A stretch of DNA of 45,845 bases from Candidatus Wolframiiraptor sinensis (GTDB lineage Archaea; Thermoproteota; Nitrososphaeria_A; Caldarchaeales; Wolframiiraptoraceae). Position 1 is the stretch's first letter, and each line of letters starts with the position of its first letter. Below are positions 3,222 through 34,322 of the stretch, in pieces. The DNA lies in contig JALNKA010000006.1 in NCBI GenBank assembly GCA_023261815.1, positions 1-45,845 of the forward strand. Reading direction: 5' to 3'. The position numbers and the translations under genes are program-made. The notes under the pieces are model-generated. The model saw nothing but the letters and a program-made list of their open reading frames with translations. It had not been told where the DNA came from and did no database searches.

Positions 3222-3313
3222 TGGGCCGGGTGGGATTCGAACCCACGACCTCCGCCGTATCCCCCTCATAAGCGAGTGTAAGGGCGGCGTCATAGCCCCT
3301 AGACTACCGGCCC
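3222..3313 (-). tRNA. tRNA-Val(TAC) with 19-nt anticodon-loop intron (about 3259-3277)
   Basis: Exons identical to 872-962 except the wobble base; different intron. Confidence 0.93.
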
Positions 3314-8310: not shown

Positions 8311-9711
8311 TCACCTCCTCCTCTTTCTTCTTCCTTTCAGGTAGATTATGGCTATGATTATTGGGATGAATAGTAGGAGTGAGCTTGCTAGGGCGTAGAT
8401 ATCCGCTGGGGTTACTGCGTGCGTTTGGCTTGTTCGCGTCGTCTGCCAGCTCGTCTCGGTCTCCACCCTCTCCGCCTCGATCATCACCTTCTCGCTTCTC
8501 GCTAGGTTACCGTATGGATCTACCACGGCCGCGTATACCTCTGCCCTCATCCCATGATCTACCGTGAATTCCAGCGCGTAGCGGCCATCCTCCTGATTCA
8601 TTTCGTATGTTCTATTCTGCCTCGCTCCTATGAGATCCGGGTAGTAGGCGATTAGGTAGGCTTTGAGGGGTTCTCCATCCGGGTCGCTCGCCTCCAAATA
8701 TGCTCTGAAGACTTCTCCCCCAGCTTTCTCGACCTTGAATGCCGTTATCTTTGGAGGCCTTGAGAGCGGCGCATAGCCTATCCTGCCCTTCGAGGGCTCC
8801 GTGAACCAGATTCTATCCCCTGCGAGGGCTGAGCCTCCTATGCCGGCCATGGTCTTAAACTCGGTTATCCTGTCTCCCTCGATCTCCCCTATGATCCACC
8901 TGGAGGGCGCCACGTAGATTATTCTTCCATCGGCTAGCTGGTAGAGCTGAGCTTCGGTTATGAAGTCTCCGCCGAGGCTCCAGGTCTTCTGAATTCTGAG
9001 GTTGCTCGAGATTTTCAGGATCTTATTGCCGCTTGTTGCTATGAGCGCTCCATCGCTGATGGCTTTTACCGCTATGGCCTGCTCGTCCAGCTCCAGAGCG
9101 CTCTTGCTCCCGGATCTCAGGTCTATTCTCGTGATGCTCCTGCAGTCTTGGTTTATCACCCACAGCGCATTGTCCGAGGCCGAGATCTTCTCCCGCCCAG
9201 CGCATGCGCTGATACTCAGGGTTCGAGCGACCTCAAAGTTCGAGGAGTTAATGCCCACGATCAGGCCCAGAGATGGTATTGATGCCCAGATGACCCCACC
9301 TCCGGCCTCAAGATCCTCTACTCTCCCGGGAGTCTCCAGCCTTCTCTCACCTCGAGCTTTAATGTCATAGATTATGAGGGGGCCCTCGCGGGGGGCTATG
9401 GCCAACAGGTCTCCGAGCACCAGCATGTCGCCGGCGTCCACGCCGGATACTAGGAGCCTGGTCTCCCAGGTTTCCGGGCTAACCAAGTATATGGCCCTCT
9501 GCGCGGCGTCCTGGATTACGAGCCAGCCCTCATACCCTGCTATCAGCTCAGGATAATCTATGGGTATTCTTTGAGGCGGGTAAATGGGCCTTGATAGCGC
9601 GCTTATCGGCTCGAGGAAGACCGAAATCCAGAGGAGGATAATGATGAGGACGATGCGCAATGTGGGGCTCCAGCGCCGCATGCTCGTCATCCATGAATTC
9701 CGGCGCCTCAA
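8311..9711 (-). CDS. Secreted, C-terminally anchored beta-propeller-like surface protein
   Basis: N-terminal hydrophobic signal; Vgb/NHL-like blades (LWVI, IWFTEPSKGRIG); SDPDG motif; Thr-rich linker; C-terminal TM plus basic tail. Confidence 0.75.
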   Translation of the reverse strand: MRRRNSWMTSMRRWSPTLRIVLIIILLWISVFLEPISALSRPIYPPQRIPIDYPELIAGYEGWLVIQDAAQRAIYLVSPETWETRLLVSGVDAGDMLVLGDLLAIAPREGPLIIYDIKARGERRLETPGRVEDLEAGGGVIWASIPSLGLIVGINSSNFEVARTLSISACAGREKISASDNALWVINQDCRSITRIDLRSGSKSALELDEQAIAVKAISDGALIATSGNKILKISSNLRIQKTWSLGGDFITEAQLYQLADGRIIYVAPSRWIIGEIEGDRITEFKTMAGIGGSALAGDRIWFTEPSKGRIGYAPLSRPPKITAFKVEKAGGEVFRAYLEASDPDGEPLKAYLIAYYPDLIGARQNRTYEMNQEDGRYALEFTVDHGMRAEVYAAVVDPYGNLARSEKVMIEAERVETETSWQTTRTSQTHAVTPADIYALASSLLLFIPIIIAIIYLKGRRKRRR

Positions 9712-9911: not shown

Positions 9912-12900
9912 ATGGGAAAAATGAGTAATAAAATCGGTAGATACAGCATCTCGCTAGTGCTCGCAGTGCTTCTAATAGCCGCAACAGCCGCAGTCGCCAT
10001 AAGCGTAATACCATCACCATCAACAGCCCAAGCAAAATACGAGATATGGATGAAGCTGGTAACAACACAGTGGAAGGGTGATACTACTAATCCGGTGTTC
10101 CCAGATCCCGCGAACACTACTCTGCCCGGGAGATATAATCTGACGGATAGATGGTATTTTGTCGAGGTCTTCCACCAGAGAGGAGCACCCTACAATGATG
10201 TGCTGTATGGTGGGATCTTCAGGCCGAATGGAACGGGCTTCGTGAAAGTATCATGGCCGAAGACCTGGGATAACGCCACAATAGTCGTCAAGGCGAAAAC
10301 CTATGACGGCACAGAGCTCGGGAGAGGAAGCCTAGGAGAGGGAATAATAGTCTACGCATTATATGTAAACATAAAAGGTAATAACACTACGGGGCTCAAC
10401 TACACCGGTAATGACCTTGATATGGCTGCATGGGTTGCCAATTTTAGCAAGCCCGAGAACGCCCTCCTCGCCAAGGCTGCTGTAGCCTTCAAGAGGTTCC
10501 ACGTCCACACATGGTATGATTTGAAGGATAATCTGAGCTATGCCCAGGTCAAGATCTACGATATCAACCACACGGCCGCCTCTGACAGCAAGTCCCTCCT
10601 AAGAGCCTTCATCACAAAGGGTGATGGCTCGGGCAACAGCCTATACGACCCGGCGGCAACAGGAGAGCTCTACCCAGCAGACTCCAAGACAATAAAGGAC
10701 AACGAATGGGTCCCAATACCGCTCCAAGTAATGCGCCTAAACAGGACAGACCCATATTACACTGTGCCGCTAGCTAACCTCGGTAGACAGCCAAACCTTA
10801 ATGCAACCGTCAGAGTCTGGTGGGAGACAGTCCTCGTAAACACGACCTTATTCATTAGACCTGAAGGGAGAAATGATCTGCCAGGCCCATTCAACATAAC
10901 AGCCGGAACATTCAACCTGAACTCCACAGTCTTCTACTTCAGATGCGCGGTAAGGGACAGCGACCCGCAGGTCAACGGAATAGTATACCCGAATAATGTT
11001 GATGTTAAGTCGGCGCTATTCTACGCGAGCTGCAAGGTCAACCTGAGGGATAGGAATGGCGCTCCATACCACTTCATGCACGAGCTAGGAAAGACCAATG
11101 AACTCTATAATAATAGTTATGCGGCCTCGACAAATCCGCATGCATGGCCGGGCTACTTAAGCGAGTACCGCAACTATTTGAGGGTGCCGAACGCCACGAT
11201 GTGGTGGGATCTCTTCCTAAAGTTCAAGGAAATAGCCATAGTTGATGGGGCGGGCAGGGTCTACAACGCGAGCGCCGAGGTATACGTATCCAAATACTAC
11301 ACCGGAACAGATGACCTGAGATATGATGACCCGAGGCGCATAGCCCTCAACGACTACCTATACACCATGACCGTCAGCGATGATCCCGGGCCATACAGGG
11401 GCTTCAGAATGGAGGTCCAGTATGCTGGAGGATTCCGCAACGCATACGGCGGACGCGAAATCTCCGTGAACGTGACGCTGGTCAATAGCCCATACGATTA
11501 TTCGCTCAGGAAGCCCAACTGGATAACTAACCGCGTGAACGGCACGATATTCGTCACGGCGAGGGTCGCCGACATAGTCTTCATAATAACGGATCAGGAG
11601 GGCAACATCCTACACCCCGACTTCACAGAAGCCTATCTGCTCAGGGACAACGGCCCACCGGTAAAGCTTGCATTCTTCCAATACGTATCAACCGATAATA
11701 ATGACAAGCATATATATGAATACTACGGGCGTGTCTCATGGCCGTTCCTCTACCGGGTATTAATTGACTCCGCGCTCGTAGGGTTCCCGAGCGTGCCGCC
11801 GAAATTCATAGCCGTCGCATATCAGGTTCCGATGGAGCTAATGTACGGCATCGTCGTCAACTACCAGGGCGTGAGAATTTACACTGACACCGCGGCGGTC
11901 CCGAAGCTCGTGAGATCGGAGGCAGTGACGGTTAACGCGACGATATTCAGGGTCAAGCTCCTCTTCGTGGACTGCAGAGATAGGCCGCTCACGGACACGC
12001 CGGTCTGGGTCTACGATCCGACGCTCCAGATGGAGGTCAAGCTACTGACGGGCCCAGATGGCGGAATAGACTTCGTTATGCCGAATCAGACCCTCAGATT
12101 CACAAGGCTATACTGGAAGGGTGTTGACGTGAGATTCGTCAACTACAAGCTGCCTGATGGAACGGTCATCAGCGCTGCCGCGAACGGAAGCGTGACTATA
12201 GCCGTTGACAGGAGCTTTAGGGAGCCGATAAAGATCACGGCCATGATCGATGACATAATCTTCAGGACGACGGACTTCGCGGGCATAACCGGAATACCAG
12301 ACCTCAACATAACAATCTCCTGGGTAGGATATAACATAACGAGACCTGGAGAGCCATGGTACTTCCTACAGACGATGGATCCAGGCCCATATGCCGTGAT
12401 CGATAATGAGCTCGCGGTCAGGCTCGGCCTGCCCGACGACTTCGACACCGGTAGAAATGACTATAACACGAGCGTGAGGGTCGCCCAGTTCTTCAGCTAC
12501 GTCATCTTCCACCGCGGCGACACCAACGAGTACATCTTCTACCAGATGCCGGCCACGACATACAACATAACGGTGACGACCGTCGTCAGCAAGGAGTACA
12601 CGTACAGGACTCCTGGAGAGAAGTACTGGCCAGGAAGAGATGTGGCGGTGCCATATGAGTCTGTGATAAGCTGGAGCCCCGGCAGCGAGTCCATGCTACC
12701 AGAGGAGGTTCACGAGCCGGCTACTATTAACAGCAGGGTCGTCCTCAGGCTATTCAACTACCCGATAGTCTACACGGCCTGCGGAGCGACGGCGATCCAG
12801 CTCAGAACATGGGCCCTAACATGGAACCTCGACATGGTTGATGGCGGCCTGAGGATCGGAGACGCCAGCTTCGACGTAGTCAACGACAACGGTAGATCAA

Positions 12901-15900
12901 TCCGTGAGATAACCGGATACTACAACGTCTCGAAGTGGGATGACGTCCTACGCTACAGGACTGTTGTATACGCGGCGGAGAAATGGAAGCCGTACTCGTT
13001 CATATGGTGGAACGGTAGCTATATGCTGAGGGATCTCAGCCTAGAGACGAACCTCACCTTCACCGTGAACATGTTCTACAACGAGTCCGCACTGCCGAAC
13101 AAGGTCTGGCCGGTGCTGAACTTCACGCTCCAGCCCAGCGAGGAGCTCTTCAGGGGAACAGCGGTCTACGCGAACTGGACGGAGATACAGAAGAACTTCG
13201 AGGTCAAGAGGCCAGCCCTCAGAAACAAGGTCATAATCTACGATGGCGAGACCCTGATCGCGCCCCTGCCAGTAACATTCATCAAGCCTAGAGCAGTAGC
13301 AAAGGGCGGAGAACCGCTCGCAAACGCCAGAATAGAACTATGGATACTAGACCTAGACGTAAACGAGACCCGCGCGGTCAAGATATCGGCCGCGGACAGC
13401 GGTAATGGAACGCTACTACTACCTAACAAGCCCGACGCCGGTAATATTAGCATCTCATGGAGGTGGGAGATGAAGTGGGTTGAGAGCGCCACGCCGCAGG
13501 TATTCGAGAGAGTCAGGTGGGACAGGATCACAATAACGTGCCCCGACGGACGTGAATACTACTTGCAGGTGCCTCCGAGCCCCGCCAAGCTCCTGATCAG
13601 GAACTTCTGCGGCAAAGGTGTAGCGGTTGCCATCAGCTCTGACTACATCTACCCGGTGGTGCAGGAGGTCAAGTTCGCGAACTTCACGACGAATGAGCAG
13701 GGAGAGATAGACAGCTTCACGCTACCAGCATACAGCGGATACCTCATGGTGCCGACAAGCGGATACCTCAACGCGACAATGGGCGTTAAAGCAAGGAATA
13801 TTACCGAGGAGTTCCACTACAGGTTCAACGTCATCTGGAGGGATGCGGTCGTATACAGTGACAACTTCGTCTTGACCAAGGAGCCCGTGACCTTCGGAGC
13901 ATCCGAGGTCTATAGCGGGAGATTCATGTTCACACTCAGCAACGCCACCGACCCGGCCTACGCCGTGAGAGGCCTCAACCTGACAATATTCTACCCGAAC
14001 GTCACGACATACGACTGGGCTGCCAACAAATTCGAGAACATCACCATAATCAGCGGGGTTGACGCGGATGGAGTGGTCGAGTTCACGCTACTGCCAGGCC
14101 CGAGATTCATGAACACGACCTACAAGTACTTCTTCGCCGCCAACCACAGCGCAATAGGCTGGCTCGAGAACCTCGTGGCCACCCAGCTGGTCCTGAACAA
14201 CGAGACATTCGGAGACGGCCCGCTCAAAGCCGTGACGAGGACTAGGATAGACGTGCCGATAATGCTCAACGCCGCCAGGGAAGTGATGTTCATAGCCCTC
14301 GCATGGAGAGATGAGGCAGGAATAGCCACAGCATACCCGATACCCAACTACAGGATCAGATACGCTATAAGGAACCTCGACGCCGGCATAGTTGCAGCAG
14401 AGGGAGAAGCAACGACAACGGCCGATGGAGTGGTCAGGGTCGAGAGCGGAAGAGATCCGACAAGGGTCTTCTGGGCCGGAATGACGATCAGGTACAGGGT
14501 CGAGCCGCCAGACCCGACGATGACCCACGCCTTCTACCCAGACGAGGAGCCAACCCACTGGGCAATATCCAGAATCAACGGAACGTCCATAAACCCGATC
14601 ACCGGCAGGTGCAGCGGAATCTGCGTCCTCAATGCTAGGTGCAAGCCATACTTGATAACGATCGACTACACGGCGATAACAGTCAGGGTAACCGACGTAA
14701 ACGGCAGGCCTGTAGTCGGAGCCAGGGTCGACCTAATAGACAAGGCTACGATGAAGCTGGCATCATGGTCCGTCACAGTTGATAGATCCTGGGAGGCCAG
14801 GCCAATAGAGTGGGTCGCCCTAAGAGACAAGCACGCCATCGAGTACCAGACCAGGGCCAGGGTCATCGGAGGAGCAGGCTCCACAAGGCTCATGAACGTC
14901 AGCATAGGGCCGGTCGCATACGACGCCACCGATGACGACGTTATAGATTACAGCATTCCAAGCAGGGGAATAAGCGAGTTCATAACATACATAGTCAGGG
15001 TCTACTACTCGCCGCCTGGAGAGGTCAAGGACGGCCTACTATACCAGAAGGCCGAGGGCAGAAGAGCCAAGGTCTATGACAGCACCGAGGATGAGATAAC
15101 TTGGAAGACGATGCAGCCGAGATACATGTCCGGCGCGAGAATATGGACGCCGCTGCCAACTCAGACCGAGCCAGGAGCCTTGCCGAAGGAGCACGTTGAC
15201 GTCTCGGCCAAGATAATGGATATAAGCTTCAAGTTCGGATACGCCGGCAAGGAGCTGCCTGAGAAAGTGGCCAGGGATGTGACGGCGACACTTGAAGGCC
15301 AGGGAGTAAAGATAACCACGACGGGAGCAGGGCTCAATGCGGTCGGACTCATACCTGGAACCTACACGCTCGAGGTGAAGGCTAAGGGCATAACAGTTGG
15401 AAGGGAGTCAATACAGCTGACCAACACGAACGTCGATAGAATGGTATCGCTGGCATTGAAGGATGTGATTGTCGAGGCGGTCGACCTCCTAGGAAGGCCC
15501 GTAACCGGATTCGCCGTATCGGTTGAGGGACCATACTACGCCGAGATAACGACGCCGAAGGACAACAAGGCCACGATCGTGGCCGCGGTCGCCCATGAAT
15601 TCTACACGATAACGGCATCGGTCGAGAGATATGGCGTCAGGACCGCATCCACCTACATGGGAGTGCCCGAGGACAGGATCAGGCTAATGCTGCCGATAGG
15701 CGATGTCAAGATAACGGTCGTAGACGTATACGGCAACCCGGTTGGAGCCGCGACGGTTAAGCTGGGGACAGTCGAGACCAAGACTGACGCGCAGGGTACA
15801 GCGATCTTCTCAGGAGTGCCGCTTGAGACCGAAGTAGGAGCGCCGGTCAGATATGACGTAGTCGTCGAGAGGGAGACGACCGTCCGAACAACCATCACGA

Positions 15901-16361
15901 CCAGCAGAACGACCACCGAGTTCAGGATATTATTCGGCCTAGGAGACATCAAGGTGATCGTCAGGGGAGCTGCAGGGCAACCGCTCGCCGGAGCCAGGGT
16001 TGACGTGCTCAAAGCTGGAGCCCTAGTAGGAACAGCGGTAACAGATGATAAGGGCGAGGCGGTATTCAGAGGCCTACCAGAGGGCACATACACAGTGAGG
16101 GTCGACTGGAAGACGTTCAAGGACGAGAAGACCGTGACCCTGAGCGAGGCTGAAATAATGGCTAAGGTGCCCAAGACCGTGGAGTTCGCCTTACCGCCAT
16201 TCACCGAGATAGCCGGAGTACCGCTGGACTTCGGAACATTCGTCGCGCTGATCGTCGGCATCATACTGCTGGTGATAGTCCTGGCGATAATCATCAGCGA
16301 GTACGTCCGCTGGCGCGGCCGCAGGCTCGGCATCTACCCGCCACCACCGCCGAAAAAGTAA
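9912..16361 (+). CDS. Very large secreted glycoprotein, probable S-layer/cell-surface protein with C-terminal carboxypeptidase-regulatory-like (Ig-fold) repeats and TM anchor
   Basis: 2149 aa; signal peptide; many N-x-S/T sequons; repeated VxVxDxxGxPV/LxGAxV motifs; C-terminal TM followed by RWRGRRLGIYPPPPPKK. Confidence 0.8.
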   Translation: MGKMSNKIGRYSISLVLAVLLIAATAAVAISVIPSPSTAQAKYEIWMKLVTTQWKGDTTNPVFPDPANTTLPGRYNLTDRWYFVEVFHQRGAPYNDVLYGGIFRPNGTGFVKVSWPKTWDNATIVVKAKTYDGTELGRGSLGEGIIVYALYVNIKGNNTTGLNYTGNDLDMAAWVANFSKPENALLAKAAVAFKRFHVHTWYDLKDNLSYAQVKIYDINHTAASDSKSLLRAFITKGDGSGNSLYDPAATGELYPADSKTIKDNEWVPIPLQVMRLNRTDPYYTVPLANLGRQPNLNATVRVWWETVLVNTTLFIRPEGRNDLPGPFNITAGTFNLNSTVFYFRCAVRDSDPQVNGIVYPNNVDVKSALFYASCKVNLRDRNGAPYHFMHELGKTNELYNNSYAASTNPHAWPGYLSEYRNYLRVPNATMWWDLFLKFKEIAIVDGAGRVYNASAEVYVSKYYTGTDDLRYDDPRRIALNDYLYTMTVSDDPGPYRGFRMEVQYAGGFRNAYGGREISVNVTLVNSPYDYSLRKPNWITNRVNGTIFVTARVADIVFIITDQEGNILHPDFTEAYLLRDNGPPVKLAFFQYVSTDNNDKHIYEYYGRVSWPFLYRVLIDSALVGFPSVPPKFIAVAYQVPMELMYGIVVNYQGVRIYTDTAAVPKLVRSEAVTVNATIFRVKLLFVDCRDRPLTDTPVWVYDPTLQMEVKLLTGPDGGIDFVMPNQTLRFTRLYWKGVDVRFVNYKLPDGTVISAAANGSVTIAVDRSFREPIKITAMIDDIIFRTTDFAGITGIPDLNITISWVGYNITRPGEPWYFLQTMDPGPYAVIDNELAVRLGLPDDFDTGRNDYNTSVRVAQFFSYVIFHRGDTNEYIFYQMPATTYNITVTTVVSKEYTYRTPGEKYWPGRDVAVPYESVISWSPGSESMLPEEVHEPATINSRVVLRLFNYPIVYTACGATAIQLRTWALTWNLDMVDGGLRIGDASFDVVNDNGRSIREITGYYNVSKWDDVLRYRTVVYAAEKWKPYSFIWWNGSYMLRDLSLETNLTFTVNMFYNESALPNKVWPVLNFTLQPSEELFRGTAVYANWTEIQKNFEVKRPALRNKVIIYDGETLIAPLPVTFIKPRAVAKGGEPLANARIELWILDLDVNETRAVKISAADSGNGTLLLPNKPDAGNISISWRWEMKWVESATPQVFERVRWDRITITCPDGREYYLQVPPSPAKLLIRNFCGKGVAVAISSDYIYPVVQEVKFANFTTNEQGEIDSFTLPAYSGYLMVPTSGYLNATMGVKARNITEEFHYRFNVIWRDAVVYSDNFVLTKEPVTFGASEVYSGRFMFTLSNATDPAYAVRGLNLTIFYPNVTTYDWAANKFENITIISGVDADGVVEFTLLPGPRFMNTTYKYFFAANHSAIGWLENLVATQLVLNNETFGDGPLKAVTRTRIDVPIMLNAAREVMFIALAWRDEAGIATAYPIPNYRIRYAIRNLDAGIVAAEGEATTTADGVVRVESGRDPTRVFWAGMTIRYRVEPPDPTMTHAFYPDEEPTHWAISRINGTSINPITGRCSGICVLNARCKPYLITIDYTAITVRVTDVNGRPVVGARVDLIDKATMKLASWSVTVDRSWEARPIEWVALRDKHAIEYQTRARVIGGAGSTRLMNVSIGPVAYDATDDDVIDYSIPSRGISEFITYIVRVYYSPPGEVKDGLLYQKAEGRRAKVYDSTEDEITWKTMQPRYMSGARIWTPLPTQTEPGALPKEHVDVSAKIMDISFKFGYAGKELPEKVARDVTATLEGQGVKITTTGAGLNAVGLIPGTYTLEVKAKGITVGRESIQLTNTNVDRMVSLALKDVIVEAVDLLGRPVTGFAVSVEGPYYAEITTPKDNKATIVAAVAHEFYTITASVERYGVRTASTYMGVPEDRIRLMLPIGDVKITVVDVYGNPVGAATVKLGTVETKTDAQGTAIFSGVPLETEVGAPVRYDVVVERETTVRTTITTSRTTTEFRILFGLGDIKVIVRGAAGQPLAGARVDVLKAGALVGTAVTDDKGEAVFRGLPEGTYTVRVDWKTFKDEKTVTLSEAEIMAKVPKTVEFALPPFTEIAGVPLDFGTFVALIVGIILLVIVLAIIISEYVRWRGRRLGIYPPPPPKK

Positions 16362-16494: not shown

Positions 16495-17553
16495 ATGAGG
16501 CTGAGACGGGCTGCAATGTTGATCATGATGCTCGCGATTCTCGTGGCAATGGCCCAGGCTGCCCTTTGCCAGGAGCCGGGCGAGAGCTTCGAGACCGCTC
16601 CCGCGATCAAGCTCGTGACCGGTGAGATAACTCTACCCGAATCCGGGTACTACATCCTCAACTCGAGCAGGAGTCAGCATATCTATAGGCTCGACGGTCT
16701 CCAGGGCGGCTACAGGCTAACGATAATCCTGGAGTTCGCGGGGATCGAGCAGGGGAGGGCGGCGATATCCCTTCACAAGGAGTCCGGCGAGATCATAGCG
16801 CAGAGGAGGATCCAGTATGGTATGGGAACAAGCCAGGAGATGAGCATAGCGTATCAGCCCAGCATCGAGTCGGCGCCCCCCGGCTCCGCCCACTACCTCG
16901 CCCTAAGCTGGTACAGCGGCTCCATGAAATACCGCATCCGATTATCGCTGGAGAGCATGGAGGATTATGGGCTCGGGAAGGGTGATGCGGGATCGAGCCC
17001 GGAATCCGCCATGCAGCTGCCGGAGCTCTCGCCCGGAAAGATCCTCGAGCTGAAAGGCTACTTAGCATCGCTGGACGATGGGGGAGACATGGCCGATCGC
17101 GTGGACTACTATCTCATGGGAGCCAGGTTCAATAGCAGCAAGAGCATCCTCAGGATCAGCATAAAGCCCCTCAGCGACATGAGGGTCTCCGCATCCCTCT
17201 ACATGGATGATCACAGGGTGGCCTACGGCTCGAGCCGCGAGCCAGGCGGAGAGGTGAGCCTAGAAGTCCCCGGAGAGTGGAAGCTCGATGAGAGGTACAG
17301 CTTCACCATCAGAGTTGATAATCTCGCGGACAAGAATGGCGGGGCATACGTCATCAGAGCCTGGATCGAGGAGCAGAACGCGGCGGAGCATCAGGCGACG
17401 ATGGTCAAGCCGCCGGGAGGGCTGGACGAGCGCGTCCTGACCATGATAGTCATGGCCGGCGCCGCATCCCTGATCGCCATCTCCGTGCTCATGATATTCC
17501 TGAGGAGGAGAAGGATCTACCGCGTCGAGGAGGTCGGCTGGTGGGGATACTAG
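16495..17553 (+). CDS. Secreted membrane-anchored protein with two PPC-like beta domains
   Basis: Signal peptide; GESFETA and DAGSSPESA...DRVDYY motifs; C-terminal TM plus RRRR. Confidence 0.7.
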   Translation: MRLRRAAMLIMMLAILVAMAQAALCQEPGESFETAPAIKLVTGEITLPESGYYILNSSRSQHIYRLDGLQGGYRLTIILEFAGIEQGRAAISLHKESGEIIAQRRIQYGMGTSQEMSIAYQPSIESAPPGSAHYLALSWYSGSMKYRIRLSLESMEDYGLGKGDAGSSPESAMQLPELSPGKILELKGYLASLDDGGDMADRVDYYLMGARFNSSKSILRISIKPLSDMRVSASLYMDDHRVAYGSSREPGGEVSLEVPGEWKLDERYSFTIRVDNLADKNGGAYVIRAWIEEQNAAEHQATMVKPPGGLDERVLTMIVMAGAASLIAISVLMIFLRRRRIYRVEEVGWWGY

Positions 17554-18410
17554 TCGAGGACGAGGTTTAGGATCGCGAGCGCGTAGGCGACCGCCTCCTC
17601 AGTCCTGATAGTCCTGACACCCTGCATCGGCATGACGTTCAACACGTAGTCGAAGTGCTCCTCGAGCTTGAAGCCCTGCCTCTCCGCGATCTCGTAAAGC
17701 CCCTCCCTCGAGGCGCCGAAAGCGGCGCATACACTCCTCCCCTCCGCGCAGGCCTCCCTGAGCGCCGGTAAAATCTCCCGGACATTAACCCCCCTCCGCG
17801 AGGTCGCTACCCTCACATCATAGCCCTCCAGTATCTCGGGAAGCCGCTCATCCACGATAGCGGTCCTGAAGCCCGGGTAAACCTCCGTGCTCCTCCGCGA
17901 TCTAGCCGTTACTCCGATCCTGCCATCGCCCCGCGGCTCTATCCTCAGGACGACCCTGGAGCCCAGGGCGAGCTTCCGCCTCAGCTTTATCGGCTTCTCA
18001 AGGCCCGCCTCCACGATGGATCTAGATCCAGCAGATATGACAAGCCCCTCCCTATAATGAGGGTAGTCAAGGCTCGCGCTCTCCGGGTGAGTTGGAATAT
18101 TGAGGGGCGGCAGCAGCCCCGCGTAACGGAGCTCGGGTCTTAGCTTGAAGAGCCTCCTCCTCAGATATGGTGCGGTGTTCAGATAATCCATCACCAGCTT
18201 TATGAGCTCCGCGTTTCTCCGATCAGGCCTCTCCGGGTCCTCGTGGTATATTATCAGCGCCTCGACCCTCGCCGCCGCGAGAAATCTCGCGAGAAAGCCG
18301 AGCCTCAGCATCTTATCCCTGGGGCTCGATGCCTCCCTCGAGAAAGATGATGGTACCAGGACGTCGAGCCTAACCCTCCTCCTCGGCGCCGCGAAACCCT
18401 CCATAATCAT
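17550..18410 (-). CDS. SPOUT-family RNA methyltransferase (MTH1/DUF171 type)
   Basis: YLNTAPYLRR, LPPLNIPTH, QGVRTIRTEEA. Confidence 0.9.
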   Translation of the reverse strand: MIMEGFAAPRRRVRLDVLVPSSFSREASSPRDKMLRLGFLARFLAAARVEALIIYHEDPERPDRRNAELIKLVMDYLNTAPYLRRRLFKLRPELRYAGLLPPLNIPTHPESASLDYPHYREGLVISAGSRSIVEAGLEKPIKLRRKLALGSRVVLRIEPRGDGRIGVTARSRRSTEVYPGFRTAIVDERLPEILEGYDVRVATSRRGVNVREILPALREACAEGRSVCAAFGASREGLYEIAERQGFKLEEHFDYVLNVMPMQGVRTIRTEEAVAYALAILNLVLD

Positions 18411-18870: not shown

Positions 18871-18883
18871 GAGAAACTTAAAG
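18871..18883 (-). promoter_or_regulatory. Probable TATA box of the archease gene (CTTTAAGTTTCTC); putative target half-site of element copy 1
   Basis: TTTAAG about 30 nt upstream of the archease ATG; complementary to the 9-mer at 18935-18943 with one G-T wobble. Confidence 0.6.
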
Positions 18884-19710
18884 GTAAAAAGGGGATGGTG
18901 GGGAGGGGCATTTGGACAGCCCTTCACCTGCCTCAAGCTTCTCACCACTCCCTTGCGGATTTTCAAAATTACGATCACAGGCTTCATCAGGGCTTTTATC
19001 CTGCCCCTCCGCCCGCATCGGCGCCATTGATTGTCCTCAGAATACCCAGTAGCCTCCTCAACACCCTCTTCTCATCTCTCGCCTTCGGCGGAAAAACATT
19101 TCTCTCCTCCTTCAATATGGTGGCTGTCAACGCGTTCAGGCATCTCCTAGCACAGCCGCTATAACGCTTCCTATATTTCCTTGGGATCTTCTCCATCGCA
19201 TTCTCGACGATCTCGCCGCGAACCTCCATTAACCGCATCCTCATGATCCTCGATCTCATCCTCGAGGTCTATCCCGAGCAGGTGCCTCTGGCGCAATCTC
19301 AACAGCTCATCGGCCAGCGCCCTCTCCTTCATCAATAATGGCTTAAACTCCACGTCGAGAGGCGTGATCTCCTTGAAATGGCGATCTCCCCTCCAGCTTT
19401 AGAGCCCCGGAGCAGATCCTCACCAGATATACCTCGTCGGGATCACAATACTCCCTTATCAGCGCCACTCTCTAGCCCTCCTCTCCGACTCCTCATCCTC
19501 CTATGCTCCTCCAGAACCCTTCTCTGAACATCATCCGGGTATAATGCGTAAATGTGCCCGATCCACTCGGATGAGGATGGGCTCCTATTAATCCTCCCGA
19601 CCACGAGGATCCTGCTCCAATACGCTCATCTCAGCCTCATGGATCGAGATGACCCCTCCTCACGCCTATAAGGGCTCGCGGACAAGCCCCACTTTCAACC
19701 ATCCCCCAAT
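18880..19710 (-). mobile_element. Decayed IS110/Nop-domain-like element, copy 1 (pseudogene plus downstream structured RNA)
   Basis: Interrupted frames from ATG 19640 (early in-frame TGA, frameshifts), a coiled-coil piece (FKEITPLDVEFKPLL...IVENAMEKIP), then KYRKRYSGCARRCLN...LRRLLGIL shared with 33923-34204. Upstream boundary uncertain. Confidence 0.65.
18902..19010 (-). ncRNA. Putative dual-guide RNA, copy 1 (9-mers CGTAATTTT at 18965-18973 and GAGAAGCTT at 18935-18943)
   Basis: Nested stems GGAGGGGCA/TGCCCCTCC, GGAT/GTCC, AGCCCT/AGGGCT, GCCTG/CAGGT; conserved with copy 2 except in the 9-mers and loops. Confidence 0.72.
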
Positions 19711-19727
19711 ATCTCGTTAGGAAGGCC

Positions 19728-19961
19728 ATGGATGCCGGGCTTGGAGAGGCCAGAATAGCCAGAATAAGGGGCGTCAAGGGCAGGGGAATATTCTTATACA
19801 ACGTTTATCCGCCAACGATACCCGACATATACGCCATAATAGTCAAGCCGAGGAGAGACCTGGAGATAAAATATCCCTGTGAGGTCAGGATGGAGGATGG
19901 AGCGATAATAGTGATAGATAGGGAGAAAATCCAGAAAATAGTGTCCAGAGAAGGGCCCTAG
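19728..19961 (+). CDS. Small hypothetical protein
   Basis: 77-aa ORF with typical codon usage in an otherwise empty interval. Confidence 0.55.
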   Translation: MDAGLGEARIARIRGVKGRGIFLYNVYPPTIPDIYAIIVKPRRDLEIKYPCEVRMEDGAIIVIDREKIQKIVSREGP

Positions 19962-20197
19962 AAAGGAATCGTAGCAAGAGCTCTACCAAATCTTTCGCAC
20001 ATGCATAAGTTTGCCCCCGAGAATCTCGTTAAAGATTCGGAGAATCCTCCCAGATGAAACTTTCCTTTAAGAGATCGTCCGTCGCCCTTTCTCTCACCGG
20101 CTTTTACCAAAGGATGCTCACCCGCGATCTGCTGGCCTGCCTCTTCCCTCCCACCGGATTTTCGCCTAAACGGCGTGCATCCTCGAGGCCGGGATCC

Positions 20198-25857: not shown

Positions 25858-25974
25858 CGCCGGGGGTGGGATTTGAACCCACGCGCCCCGCACGAGGGGC
25901 ATCGGCTATCCCGGCTCTGACCAGTCCTCCCACGATCTCGAGGCCGACCCACTACCTGGCTATGGGACCCCGGC
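25858..25974 (-). tRNA. tRNA-Ser(CGA) with 29-nt 37/38 intron
   Basis: Acceptor GCCGGGG/CCCCGGC-G, stem TCGGC/GCCGA, CT-CGA, long variable arm, BHB central helix CTCG/CGGG. Confidence 0.9.
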
Positions 25975-26033
25975 TCTCAGAAAATCTACCAGCATAGATT
26001 ACTATTTGGCACTTTCTCCGGGGTTAATGAGAA

Positions 26034-26147
26034 TGGCGCCGGGGGCGGGATTTGAACCCGCGCGGCCCCGAAGGGCCACGGGCTATCTCCCGAGAAGGGC
26101 ATACTCGGCTCAAGGCCCGCGCCTTTTCCTGGCTTGGCTACCCCGGC
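26034..26147 (-). tRNA. tRNA-Ser(TGA) with 24-nt 37/38 intron and encoded CCA
   Basis: GCCGGGG acceptor, stem CGGGC/GCCCG, CT-TGA, long variable arm, TTCAAAT loop, 3' GCCA. Confidence 0.9.
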
Positions 26148-26199
26148 TCAGCTCATGCTGAATCAGCCCTAGCTTTATTGTTTCCGACCTGGGTCGGAG

Positions 26200-27531
26200 T
26201 TATTTCGAGCCCGGCTCCCAGCTTCTCAGGTATCTCGCCTGCTCCTCGGTGAGCTCCTCTACTTCGGCTCCCATGGACTCGAGCTTGAGCCTCGCGACCA
26301 GCTCATCGAGCTCCCTCGGAACATCTAGGACGCCTATGGGCAGCTTTCCCCGATTACTGGCGAGGTACTCGGCGGAGAGTGCTTGGAGGCTGAATGACAT
26401 GTCCATCACGTCGCTTGGGTGGCCCTCCGCGCAGACGAGGTTCACGAGCCTGCCCTCGCCCAGGAGATAAAGCCTCCTTCCATCCTCCAGCACATACATT
26501 TCAACGCACGGCAGGATTCTCTCCTTTCTAATGCTCATGGTCTCGAGATCCCTCTTATCTATCTCGACGTCGAAGTGGCCCGCGTTCGCCAGGATCGCGC
26601 CATCCCTCATGAGCTTGAAGTGCTCTCCCCTTATCACGGAGATGTTCCCAGTTGCCGTTATGAAGAGCTCGCCATGAGCCGCCGCCCTCTTCATGCTCTC
26701 AACCGCGAAACCATCCATGAGCGCTTTCAAGGCCCTTATCGGATTCGCCTCGACTACCGTAACCCTCGCACCCATCCCCCTGAGCCTCTGCGCTATGCCA
26801 GAGCCCACATTCCCATAGCCGGCCACCACGACGTCCCTGCCGGCGAGGAGCATGCCCGTGGCCCTGATCACGCCGTCGAGAGCCGACTGGCCTGTGCCGA
26901 TCGGGTTATCGAAGAGCTTCTTCGACTCGGCATCATTCACGGCCACGACCGGGTATAGGAGCCTACCCTCCCTTGCGAGAGCCCTCAGCCTTAGAACGCC
27001 GGTAGTCGTCTCCTCGCATCCGCCGATCATCCCGCCGACAAGCTCCCGCACATCAAGATCACCGATGACGGGCCTTACATACTTGAGCTCCTCGGACTCC
27101 ACGCTATAATAGAGCTTGTGTATCGTCGAGATCAGGTCGGCCCCATCATCTATGGTGATCTGCGGCTCATCAGCGAGAACGCGGCCTATGCACTCATAAT
27201 ACTCCCTCACCGTCTGGCCCCTGAAAGCATAAACCCTGGTCCCGCGCGCGGCGAGGGCCGCCGCCACATCATCCTGAGTGCTCATGGGGTTTGATGCGCA
27301 GATGCTCACCTCGGCACCGCCTTCCTCCAATACTTCGACGAGGATCGCGGTCTCGGTCGTGACGTGGAGGCAAGCCCCTATCCTCAGCCCTCTTAGCGGT
27401 TTCTCCCTTCTAAATCTCTCCAAAATTTTCATGAGGACCGGCGTGAAGTTCTTGGTCCACTCTATCCTCCTCTCGCCGACCTCGGCCAAGCTCGGATCCC
27501 TAATCCAGCTCGCCCCCATCATCAGCATCAA
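26200..27531 (-). CDS. ahcY: S-adenosylhomocysteine hydrolase family protein
   Basis: CLHVTTET, SNPMSTQD, DDGAD, EETTTG, NAGHFDVEID, EGRLVNL, GHPSDVMD. Confidence 0.96.
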   Translation of the reverse strand: MMLMMGASWIRDPSLAEVGERRIEWTKNFTPVLMKILERFRREKPLRGLRIGACLHVTTETAILVEVLEEGGAEVSICASNPMSTQDDVAAALAARGTRVYAFRGQTVREYYECIGRVLADEPQITIDDGADLISTIHKLYYSVESEELKYVRPVIGDLDVRELVGGMIGGCEETTTGVLRLRALAREGRLLYPVVAVNDAESKKLFDNPIGTGQSALDGVIRATGMLLAGRDVVVAGYGNVGSGIAQRLRGMGARVTVVEANPIRALKALMDGFAVESMKRAAAHGELFITATGNISVIRGEHFKLMRDGAILANAGHFDVEIDKRDLETMSIRKERILPCVEMYVLEDGRRLYLLGEGRLVNLVCAEGHPSDVMDMSFSLQALSAEYLASNRGKLPIGVLDVPRELDELVARLKLESMGAEVEELTEEQARYLRSWEPGSK

Positions 27532-33899: not shown

Positions 33900-34313
33900 C
33901 TCCGGGTGGATAAGAAGCTTGCTTGAGGTTCCTAGGACTGTGTAAGCCGACGCGGGAGGAATTGAAGAAGTATGAGGAGAGAAGCGGAGAGAAATACAGG
34001 AAGCGATATAGCGGCTGTGCTAGGAGATGTCTGAATTCGCTGACAATTGCCGTATTGAGGAAGGAGAAGGTGATTTCTCCGCCAAGGGCAAGGAACCGGA
34101 AGGAGATACTGAGGAGGTTGCTAGGAATTCTGAAGGCCTACAATGGGCTATTGTGGGTGGAGGGGCAGGATAAAGCCCTAATGAGGCCTGTGGTGGGATC
34201 TTAGATGCTCCATAAAGGAGTGGTTATCTCTTTGATGCAGGCGAAGGGTCGTCCAAATGCCCCCTCCCTTTCCAAACCCCCCTTTTCTTTTTAGTTTTTA
34301 ATTTTTAGTTTTT
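33900..34313 (+). mobile_element. Truncated IS110/Nop-domain-like element, copy 2 (C-terminal gene fragment, structured RNA, T-rich end)
   Basis: LRFLGLCKPT...SGEKYRKRYSGCARRCLN...LRRLLGIL, homologous to 18996-19259; upstream boundary uncertain. Confidence 0.65.
34159..34267 (+). ncRNA. Putative dual-guide RNA, copy 2 (9-mers GGGATCTTA at 34195-34203 and TATCTCTTT at 34225-34233)
   Basis: Same nested stems and TGGT-N9-GA frames as copy 1, with identical 21-nt spacing between the 9-mers. Confidence 0.72.
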
Positions 34314-34322
34314 TAAGATCCC
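34311..34322 (+). promoter_or_regulatory. Probable TATA box of the HAD hydrolase gene; putative target half-site TAAGATCCC (34314-34322)
   Basis: TTTTAAG about 30 nt upstream of ATG 34347; exact reverse complement of the 9-mer at 34195-34203. Confidence 0.65.

Follow-up and report, generated by a model that had tools for sequence, protein, structure and literature searches.

The window analysed here is a stretch of 45,845 nucleotides (nt) of Candidatus Wolframiiraptor sinensis DNA (positions 1 to 45,845 of contig JALNKA010000006.1), which is contig C5 of a host genome of 1.18 Mb and 92% completeness. It carries two copies of a predicted RNA hairpin of approximately 110 nt, and the lower stem of each is interrupted by a loop with the letters of a kink-turn (k-turn). 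Our reading, towards which we lean without holding it firmly, is that this loop acts as a k-turn-type module within a guide RNA, and that the RNA belongs to an archaeal mobile-element family not described before. That the RNA is a guide is strongly supported, for its internal loop has two variable strands, and each corresponds to one half of the site into which the element has inserted. The k-turn-like motif, to judge from the aligned copies, is real, non-standard and specific to one subfamily of these elements. In the following sections we discuss the hairpin, its guides and target sites, the protein encoded beside it, and what the loop may be for.

The hairpin and the loop in its lower stem

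Copy 1 of the hairpin occupies 18902..19010 on the minus strand, as defined by its minimum free energy (MFE) fold, by pair counts in an alignment of 25 non-redundant copies and by a covariance-model match (18913-18997, 89.1 bits). From the outside in, it consists of a 9-bp helix P0a, a 4-bp P0b, a 6-bp P1 (18994-18989 / 18923-18918), a 6x2 loop, a 6-bp P2 (18982-18977 / 18931-18926), a large internal loop and a 5-bp P3. The lower stem is formed by P1, P2 and the 6-nt/2-nt loop between them, which reads NAU-GA-R opposite GA; its bulged strand (a 3-nt bulge, G, A and an extra purine; 6 nt) lies at 18983..18988, and the opposed G and A of the 3′ strand (2 nt) at 18924..18925. The internal loop holds the two alignment-derived guides of 9 nt, guide A on its 5′ strand (18965..18973) and guide B on its 3′ strand (18935..18943), with the P3 hairpin (18947..18961) between them; the P3 helix is 98.4% paired in the alignment.

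Copy 2, on the plus strand at 34159..34267 (MFE fold and a covariance-model match at 34171-34255, 90.9 bits), follows the same plan. Its P1 is formed by 34174-34179 and 34245-34250 (6 bp) and its P2 by 34186-34191 and 34237-34242 (6 bp), the bulged strand of the loop lies at 34180..34185 opposite the G and A at 34243-34244, and guides A and B are found at 34195..34203 and 34225..34233, respectively. Folded each on its own, without an alignment, the two window copies give identical helices and the identical 6x2 loop. The fold of copy 1 has an MFE of -57.8 kcal/mol (z -4.85), which none of 200 shuffles equalled; the z score of copy 2 is -1.94.

The original prediction, made from the letters of the window, had described in both copies a helix, a 3-nt bulge and opposed GA/GA with one purine more than a standard k-turn, in the scaffold of a guide RNA. 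Its letters and positions hold for both copies, provided that the minus strand is stated for copy 1, and the helix, bulge and opposed GA/GA are indeed present in each. The purine is correctly called extra: the register in which it pairs fails, the register that leaves it unpaired gives six pairs in P2, and in the latter a U-A pair is exchanged for C-G in 5 of the 25 sequences.

Two smaller observations concern the outline of the hairpin. The stop codon (18998-18996) of an 87-aa open reading frame (ORF) remnant at 18996-19259 lies inside the 5′ strand of copy 1, so that the RNA overlaps the last codons of the ORF. The triplets that border the guides (RRU and GAU) could lengthen P2 and P3 through R-U, R·A and U·G oppositions in all copies, as in copy 1 by 18974-18976 with 18932-18934 and by 18944-18946 with 18962-18964.

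A pattern search inside the window gave three matches with at most two mismatches where 2.16 are expected; this is no better than chance, and the evidence was therefore taken from copies elsewhere. Using nhmmer, 19 RNA copies were found on 12 contigs of the host genome, several of them at contig ends, and a covariance model built from 15 copies recovered 17 of the 19. The model matched nothing in the remaining 34 genomes of the GTDB family (13 from the host's own genus). It did find 12 further copies, scoring 68.6-98.5 bits and located on metagenome contigs, among 99 related loci that had been collected through the protein and not through the RNA. Among the resulting 31 sequences NAU-GA is present on the 5′ strand in 28, GA on the 3′ strand in 29, and both in 27; the four exceptions comprise two copies with a replaced 5′ half, one in which both strands are mutated and one with a mutated 3′ strand. 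The set of 25 was obtained by dropping three metagenome orthologues of host copies and three host copies with an insertion or a replaced 5′ half.

A standard k-turn is characterized by a Watson-Crick C (canonical) helix, a 3-nt bulge, tandem G·A and A·G pairs from which the NC (non-canonical) helix directly continues, and binding by proteins of the L7Ae family. In box C and the U4 5′ stem-loop, the two bases ahead of the G·A pairs are A and U. In the present loop, P1 provides the helix 5′ of the bulge (6 bp, 95.3% paired, two pairs changed on both sides). The bulge reads NAU in 25/25, and the letters that follow are those of tandem G·A pairs. By column, the first bulge position (L1) is G in 19, A in 5 and U in 1; L2 is A and L3 is U in all 25; the following G is found in 25 and the A in 24; the extra purine is G in 17 and A in 8; and on the 3′ strand G and A are each kept in 24. 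The GA/GA positions, whose conservation in a deeper alignment the original prediction had named as a check, are thus conserved within the subfamily, at 24-25 of 25 per position, and this among copies that are only 70-88% identical outside the loop. A strict k-turn scanner accepted 18 of the 25 sequences as against 63 of 1000 shuffles. The five helices together are 93.8% paired, compared with 42-50% when the partner strand is slid, and ten pairs have changed on both sides (4.9 ± 1.4 in shuffles, of which 1/500 did as well).

Guides, target sites and the two window insertions

Each strand of the internal loop consists of RRU, approximately nine variable nucleotides and a GAU-like triplet. All 25 guide pairs are distinct. 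Of the guide positions, 1-6 are unconstrained, and T occupies position 7 in 11-18 of 25 and positions 8 and 9 in 20-23 of 25. Only 7-10 of the 18 guide positions are shared between elements whose identity over some 1010 other positions is 88%. One metagenome locus, L074, has a guide B identical to that of window copy 1 (18935-18973) and agrees with it in 5/9 of guide A (14/18 in total), the two being at different sites; this hints that, to go by these letters, guides may change stepwise or by exchange of halves. Random mutation is very unlikely to be the source of guides that match their sites.

On the right, the RNA is followed by a conserved tail of about 38 nt closing in a run of T, and just beyond this tail, at 34-185 nt from the RNA, stands the reverse complement of one guide. 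When the 25 copies were searched with their own guides (15-200 nt downstream), the best match was 9/9 in 13, 8/9 in 7, 7/9 in 3 and 6/9 in 2. The flanks of other copies gave 9/9 in only 3 and 8/9 in 42 of 600 comparisons, and same-sense guides against their own flank gave 9/9 in 0 and 8/9 in 1 of 25. The matching guide in the 20 copies with at least 8/9 is guide A in 11 and guide B in 9. On the left, the other guide is found in the same sense upstream of the element at 9/9 in six copies, compared with none in any of three control orientations; locus L076 provides a seventh case. The site is therefore one guide followed by the reverse complement of the other, approximately 17 bp with a T/A-rich centre, and the element sits in this centre in either orientation. 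Since the left flank is matched by one guide in the same sense and the right flank by the reverse complement of the other, the two pair with opposite strands. The further claim of the original prediction, that the hairpin is the scaffold of a mobile-element guide RNA, is thereby upheld: the RNA follows the gene of a protein whose predicted fold matches TasR and IS621, and its loop strands match the halves of its own insertion site.

At the centre of the site, 2-5 T/A letters are common to both junctions, and these represent either a crossover core or a duplication. When the whole genome was searched for the two guides next to each other, in any of five arrangements, hits occurred at about the rate of chance, and only one on contig C23, beside its own copy, was informative. 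Comparison of the ends of three complete elements with their interior, as a search for donor-binding guides, gave only 7-8-mers.

The insertion of copy 2 can be followed most closely. The inserted segment, 33926..34311 on the plus strand (386 nt; defined by metagenome joints and empty sites), comprises a 5′-truncated ORF remnant, the RNA and the tail. It is followed at 34314..34322 by the right target half, which is the reverse complement of guide A at 9/9 and is native DNA, being present also in relatives that lack the element. In the window the insertion replaces 14 native letters, including the left target half. Four genomes of the same genus have the empty site, with the neighbouring genes about 20 nt apart and the right half in place. 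Contigs with the empty site were also obtained from two hot-spring runs, joining 33925 to 34312 (X5, depth 64.5) and to 34320 (X1, depth 44.6). These empty-site contigs carry the letters of guide B directly left of 34312 and then the reverse complement of guide A, overlapping by one base, exactly the 17 nt that the guides predict. Because the halves are present in empty sites, they belong to the target and not to the element. A contig of a further run, X3, joins 19017 and 34028, that is, the two window copies on opposite strands, and is either a recombinant between them or an assembly chimera at the repeat.

Copy 1 belongs to an insertion of approximately 1310 nt on the minus strand (about 18883..20192), located between genes for archease and prefoldin (identified by Pfam). 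Two genomes of the same genus lack roughly 18883-20192, relatives without the element align up to 18882, and one metagenome contig skips 18867-20085. The right target half, in native DNA at 18871..18879 (minus strand), is the reverse complement of guide B at 8/9. The left junction was not found: there is no left match of at least 8/9 within 2500 nt, and in that part the relatives are too divergent. The part at 19379-20192 is not common to other copies, and the insertion also contains a 77-aa ORF on the plus strand (19728-19961) with no Pfam match.

The encoded protein and the known RNA-guided systems

In full copies the RNA lies directly 3′ of an ORF of 304 aa (C12:669-1580) and partly overlaps its stop codon. 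The host genome retains at least one intact gene for the protein; both window copies are degenerate remnants. The protein matches no Pfam family, and its 10.1 bits against NCBIfam transpos_IS110 (cut-off 140) do not make it a member. One of 25 remote full-length members reaches 16.1 bits against DEDD_Tnp_IS110, below the cut-off of 29. Sequence searches found no relative in the PDB; the family profile, run against PDB sequences, matched only the coiled coils of keratin and FANCI, which we judged to be noise. A word index returned 69 homologues, all unnamed or "hypothetical", from metagenome-assembled genomes of Nitrososphaerota, Thaumarchaeota or Bathyarchaeia, and an exhaustive profile search of 1.84 billion representatives yielded only 132 clusters, many being fragments.

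The AlphaFold2 model (predicted local distance difference test score, pLDDT, 91; predicted template modelling score, pTM, 0.86) was compared over its whole length using VIA-align, which gave TasR (9mty; Z 16.2, 252 aligned residues), IS621 (8wt9; Z 14.6, 264 residues) and ISCro4 (Z 14.6). The C-terminal half matches TasH (Z 12), the RuvC fold matches Thermus RuvC (Z 8.4), and the ten best Foldseek hits are all TasR, ISCro4 or IS621. Residues D9, D46, D97 and D100, invariant in 30 sequences, are located in the model where the RuvC fold carries its acidic residues. Beyond residue 118 the model consists of helices only, with no beta strand in the C-terminal domain. IS110 proteins have a catalytic serine in that domain; here S216 alone among the serines is invariant, and the SG-like position can be S, N or Q. 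As modelled, then, the protein (approximately 300 aa) combines a coiled coil and a Nop-like domain of helices with a RuvC-like nuclease domain whose four acidic residues are invariant.

Several of the "solo" RNAs are miniature elements of about 350-900 nt that have both junctions intact (9/9) and no protein gene; examples in the host genome (G000) are C14 ~8880-9240, C23 ~17010-17600, C33 ~50200-50780 and C10 ~87290-88220. They thus resemble non-autonomous derivatives, for which the protein would have to be supplied in trans. A different arrangement is seen in metagenome elements (L070:19-890, L015 (G000:C13) and L067-L077), where one or two small ORFs (122 and 181 aa) precede the protein gene, with stop and start codons that overlap or lie a few bases apart. 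Three different upstream types occur, and of the 122-aa ORF only fragments are found in the host genome.

We conclude that the element family is undescribed, archaeal and mobile, and is a variant of the IS110/TIGR-Tas kind. With IS110/IS1111 elements that use a bridge RNA or seekRNA (IS621; PMC11187229), the family shares the plan of its protein, which joins a RuvC-like DEDD domain with its four acidic residues to a coiled coil and an RNA-binding domain made of helices (Z 14.6). It further shares a weak sequence similarity to the IS110 DEDD profile and a non-coding RNA encoded beside the gene. Common to both as well are two guides on the two strands of one internal loop, addressing opposite target strands with a common core. 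Unlike IS110 proteins, the present one belongs to neither of the defining families in Pfam or NCBIfam (DEDD_Tnp_IS110, Transposase_20), has in its model no beta strand in the C-terminal domain, and conserves no serine besides S216. Its RNA has a single guide loop in place of separate target- and donor-binding loops, no donor guides having been found, and carries a k-turn-type loop; and each copy has its own target where IS110 copies have a common one.

The best structural match is to TasR of the TIGR-Tas systems (PMC12045711; bioRxiv 10.64898/2026.09.09.750476). The guide RNA of these systems resembles ours in its two spacers of about 9 nt, with short conserved flanking motifs and a terminal stem and loop element that close the unit, and in that the two spacers (9 + 9 nt in our case) address opposite DNA strands. 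A Nop-domain effector fused to RuvC is present here at the level of the fold, with no match at the level of sequence. In contrast to TIGR-Tas, the family has no array, its 19 units lying at 19 separate places, one per element. Its guides match the element's own insertion site, which indicates that the system serves mobility, whereas we found no mobility role reported for TIGR-Tas in the accessible text. The terminal stem, moreover, carries a k-turn signature of the kind that PMC12045711 ascribes to snoRNAs only. By analogy with both systems, the RNA would function as a stem-loop tigRNA unit does, or as does the loop with which a bridge RNA binds its target.

The archaeal box C/D small ribonucleoprotein (sRNP; L7Ae, Nop5 and fibrillarin) is similar in its Nop-like fold, in a pseudo-twofold RNA with two guides, and in a 3-nt bulge followed by tandem G·A beside the terminal stem, with A and U before the G·A. 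The set of terminal C/D and internal C′/D′ boxes is not reproduced in our RNA, the 3′ strand of which reads YGA and which has no internal boxes, no internal k-loop and no D-box consensus, and the loop has its extra purine. The k-turn lies 6 bp outside the guide-abutting motifs and is not built by them, P2 intervening between loop and guides. The guides match the element's own DNA flanks in place of rRNA or tRNA, and the RuvC domain keeps its acidic residues.

The premise of the original prediction that Nop5 has relatives in the RNA-binding domains of IS110 and Tas proteins is backed by the literature (PMC11213020, PMC12045711). A descent of box C/D guide RNPs from IS110- or TIGR-like systems has been put forward by two groups (PMC11213020, PMC12045711). 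In that family, k-turns that recruit L7 have so far been described only in snoRNAs (PMC11213020, PMC12045711), which they set apart from tigRNAs and bridge RNAs (PMC12045711), and the database of PMC11213020 contains no extant archaeal IS110 clade ancestral to Nop5. The only paper found that joins L7Ae, the kink-turn and IS110 was PMC11213020, which concerns snoRNA k-turns; bioRxiv supplements may bear on the point. We found no related literature that mentions "Nitrososphaerota", and none of the taxon names of the present family occurs in the four files of TIGR-Tas supplementary text. A 2026 survey of IS110-adjacent RNAs selected loci by a Pfam architecture that is absent in this family.

Possible roles of the loop, and other features of the window

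Several features of the loop fit recognition of the L7Ae type, namely the invariant A and U at L2 and L3, two variants that are canonical k-turns (C25 and L077, below), a host that lives in hot springs, and the presence of an L7Ae gene, a 128-aa ORF on contig C10 that scores 105.7 bits against PF01248. Binding of L7Ae to the loop is a plausible prediction from these data, which we stop just short of calling probable.

A number of observations weigh against a k-turn-type module. The NC helix does not continue directly from the G·A pairs, as an unpaired purine intervenes in 23 of the 25 sequences, and it is for this reason that we term the loop k-turn-like and not a standard k-turn. The two others, a host copy (C25) and L077, have one base less in P2 and lack the extra purine; in these the purine position pairs, giving a canonical k-turn. 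The four G and A bases are invariant in intact copies and thus show no covariation, and their conservation could serve another partner. One miniature element (C14:9112) has target halves at 9/9 on both sides and yet a mutated loop. The loop lies 6 bp plus 3 nt from the guides, whereas the k-turn of C/D RNAs is made by the boxes that abut them. By analogy, the Nop-like domain would bind at the motifs flanking the guides, 6 bp away from the loop.

The distant relatives add to these points. Among 71 of them the k-turn consensus occurs in 6, compared with 149 of 1420 shuffles, and never at the homologous place, where representatives read by eye have a plain bulge of 2-4 nt (a statement that rests on these representatives together with the k-turn scanner). 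Distant subfamilies nevertheless keep the relation of guide to flank: the longest match is at least 10 nt in 12 of 55 loci as against 17 of 434 mismatched pairs, and the matches fall on the two loop strands. Since relatives with working-looking guides lack the G·A pairs at this place, the k-turn is not required for the guide mechanism. The plain bulge likewise marks the k-turn signature as a feature of the subfamily and not of the ancestor; it looks, from the sequences compared, like a late addition in one archaeal lineage and not like an ancestral trait shared with C/D RNAs. The evolutionary link between IS110/TIGR systems and C/D sRNPs that the original prediction had offered is accordingly weakened, the relatives having the consensus at the rate of shuffles and the plain bulge in its stead.

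If the loop is a k-turn-type module, the following mechanism may be envisaged. By analogy with TasR-tigRNA and IS621-bridge RNA complexes, a dimer of the protein would hold the two guide strands at their RRU and GAU motifs, with P2 leaving the protein. Six base pairs further out the loop would fold as a k-turn and bend the long P1/P0 stem away, and in a hot-spring host it would most likely be clamped by the abundant k-turn protein L7Ae. The RNP might then either exchange strands at the T/A core, as IS110 does, or cut empty sites in the manner of TasR, with repair copying the element in (homing). The 2-5 common letters at the junctions fit both courses. We favour the nuclease because no donor-binding loop was found, the element ends are variable and the C-terminal domain is all-helical. 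Excision of IS621 depends on recognition of the donor arm (bioRxiv 10.64898/2026.08.31.748434), and no counterpart of that arm was found in the present element.

A larger interpretation places the family, as a living intermediate, halfway from RNA-guided transposons to box C/D RNPs. It would then possess an active RuvC domain and a Nop-like domain, would have captured host L7Ae by way of the k-turn, and would retarget itself through private guide pairs; a private pair for every copy would mean that guides are rewritten much faster than the rest of the element mutates. We regard this as rather unlikely. An archaeal member of the TasR/IS621 fold class with a k-turn signature in its guide RNA does turn the "acquire L7Ae" step into an experiment on a natural substrate, and makes the proposed tie of RNA-guided transposons to RNA-methylation particles testable. 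Whatever becomes of the k-turn, the family is small and Pfam-less, its guide has a single loop and spells a readable code of about 17 bp, it has miniature non-autonomous derivatives, and its per-copy guides raise the question of natural guide reprogramming.

The strongest competitor of the k-turn-type reading is that the loop serves as a kink or docking module, folding by itself or being read by the element's own protein, with L7Ae uninvolved. The plain bulge of the relatives lies at an equal distance from the guide loop, which suggests that what has to be conserved is a bend, as opposed to a site for L7Ae; the standard substrate of L7Ae has no such extra purine, and TasR and IS621 function without L7 (PMC12045711). 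Set against this, the subfamily has swapped the plain bulge for the exact letters of a k-turn, with L2 and L3 invariant, which an unassisted kink would not need, and the host does possess L7Ae. We therefore treat a kink independent of L7Ae as a real possibility, although not the likelier outcome.

Conservation of the loop as DNA (a promoter, terminator or recombination signal), or merely because the copies are young, appears improbable. It draws some support from the lack of covariation in the G and A bases and from an A-rich stretch just upstream, including the stop codon, that can be read as a TATA-like box. Youth is contradicted by the divergence of the copies outside a loop that is kept nearly intact. 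Compensatory changes in both flanking helices point to selection on RNA, and the loop lies inside a hairpin that is found by folding without an alignment.

That the hairpin is an ordinary archaeal box C/D sRNA guiding 2′-O-methylation may be dismissed with near confidence: a box-C-like run of letters on the 5′ strand in 19/25 copies (those with G at L1) and two sub-threshold Rfam C/D matches overlapping the region (15.6 and 11.8 bits against cut-offs of 42 and 41, which we judged to be chance) are outweighed by the failure of any Rfam family to reach its cut-off, by the lack of C′/D′ boxes, by guides that stand 6 bp away from the loop and whose matches, on opposite strands, are the DNA flanks of the element itself, and by an RNA that travels with a transposon-like gene and is found in one of 35 genomes of the family.

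Three further features of the window are recorded here. Four tRNA matches of 91-117 nt, a length that would accommodate an intron, are located at 871-962, 3222-3313, 25858-25974 and 26037-26147; ARAGORN reported only the first of these and typed it as tRNA-SeC, probably misled by the intron. The metagenome depth rises to a peak over 25914-26514. An ORF of 2149 aa (9912-16361), the sole Pfam match of which is a C-terminal CarboxypepD_reg / Ig-like domain, probably encodes a large surface protein.

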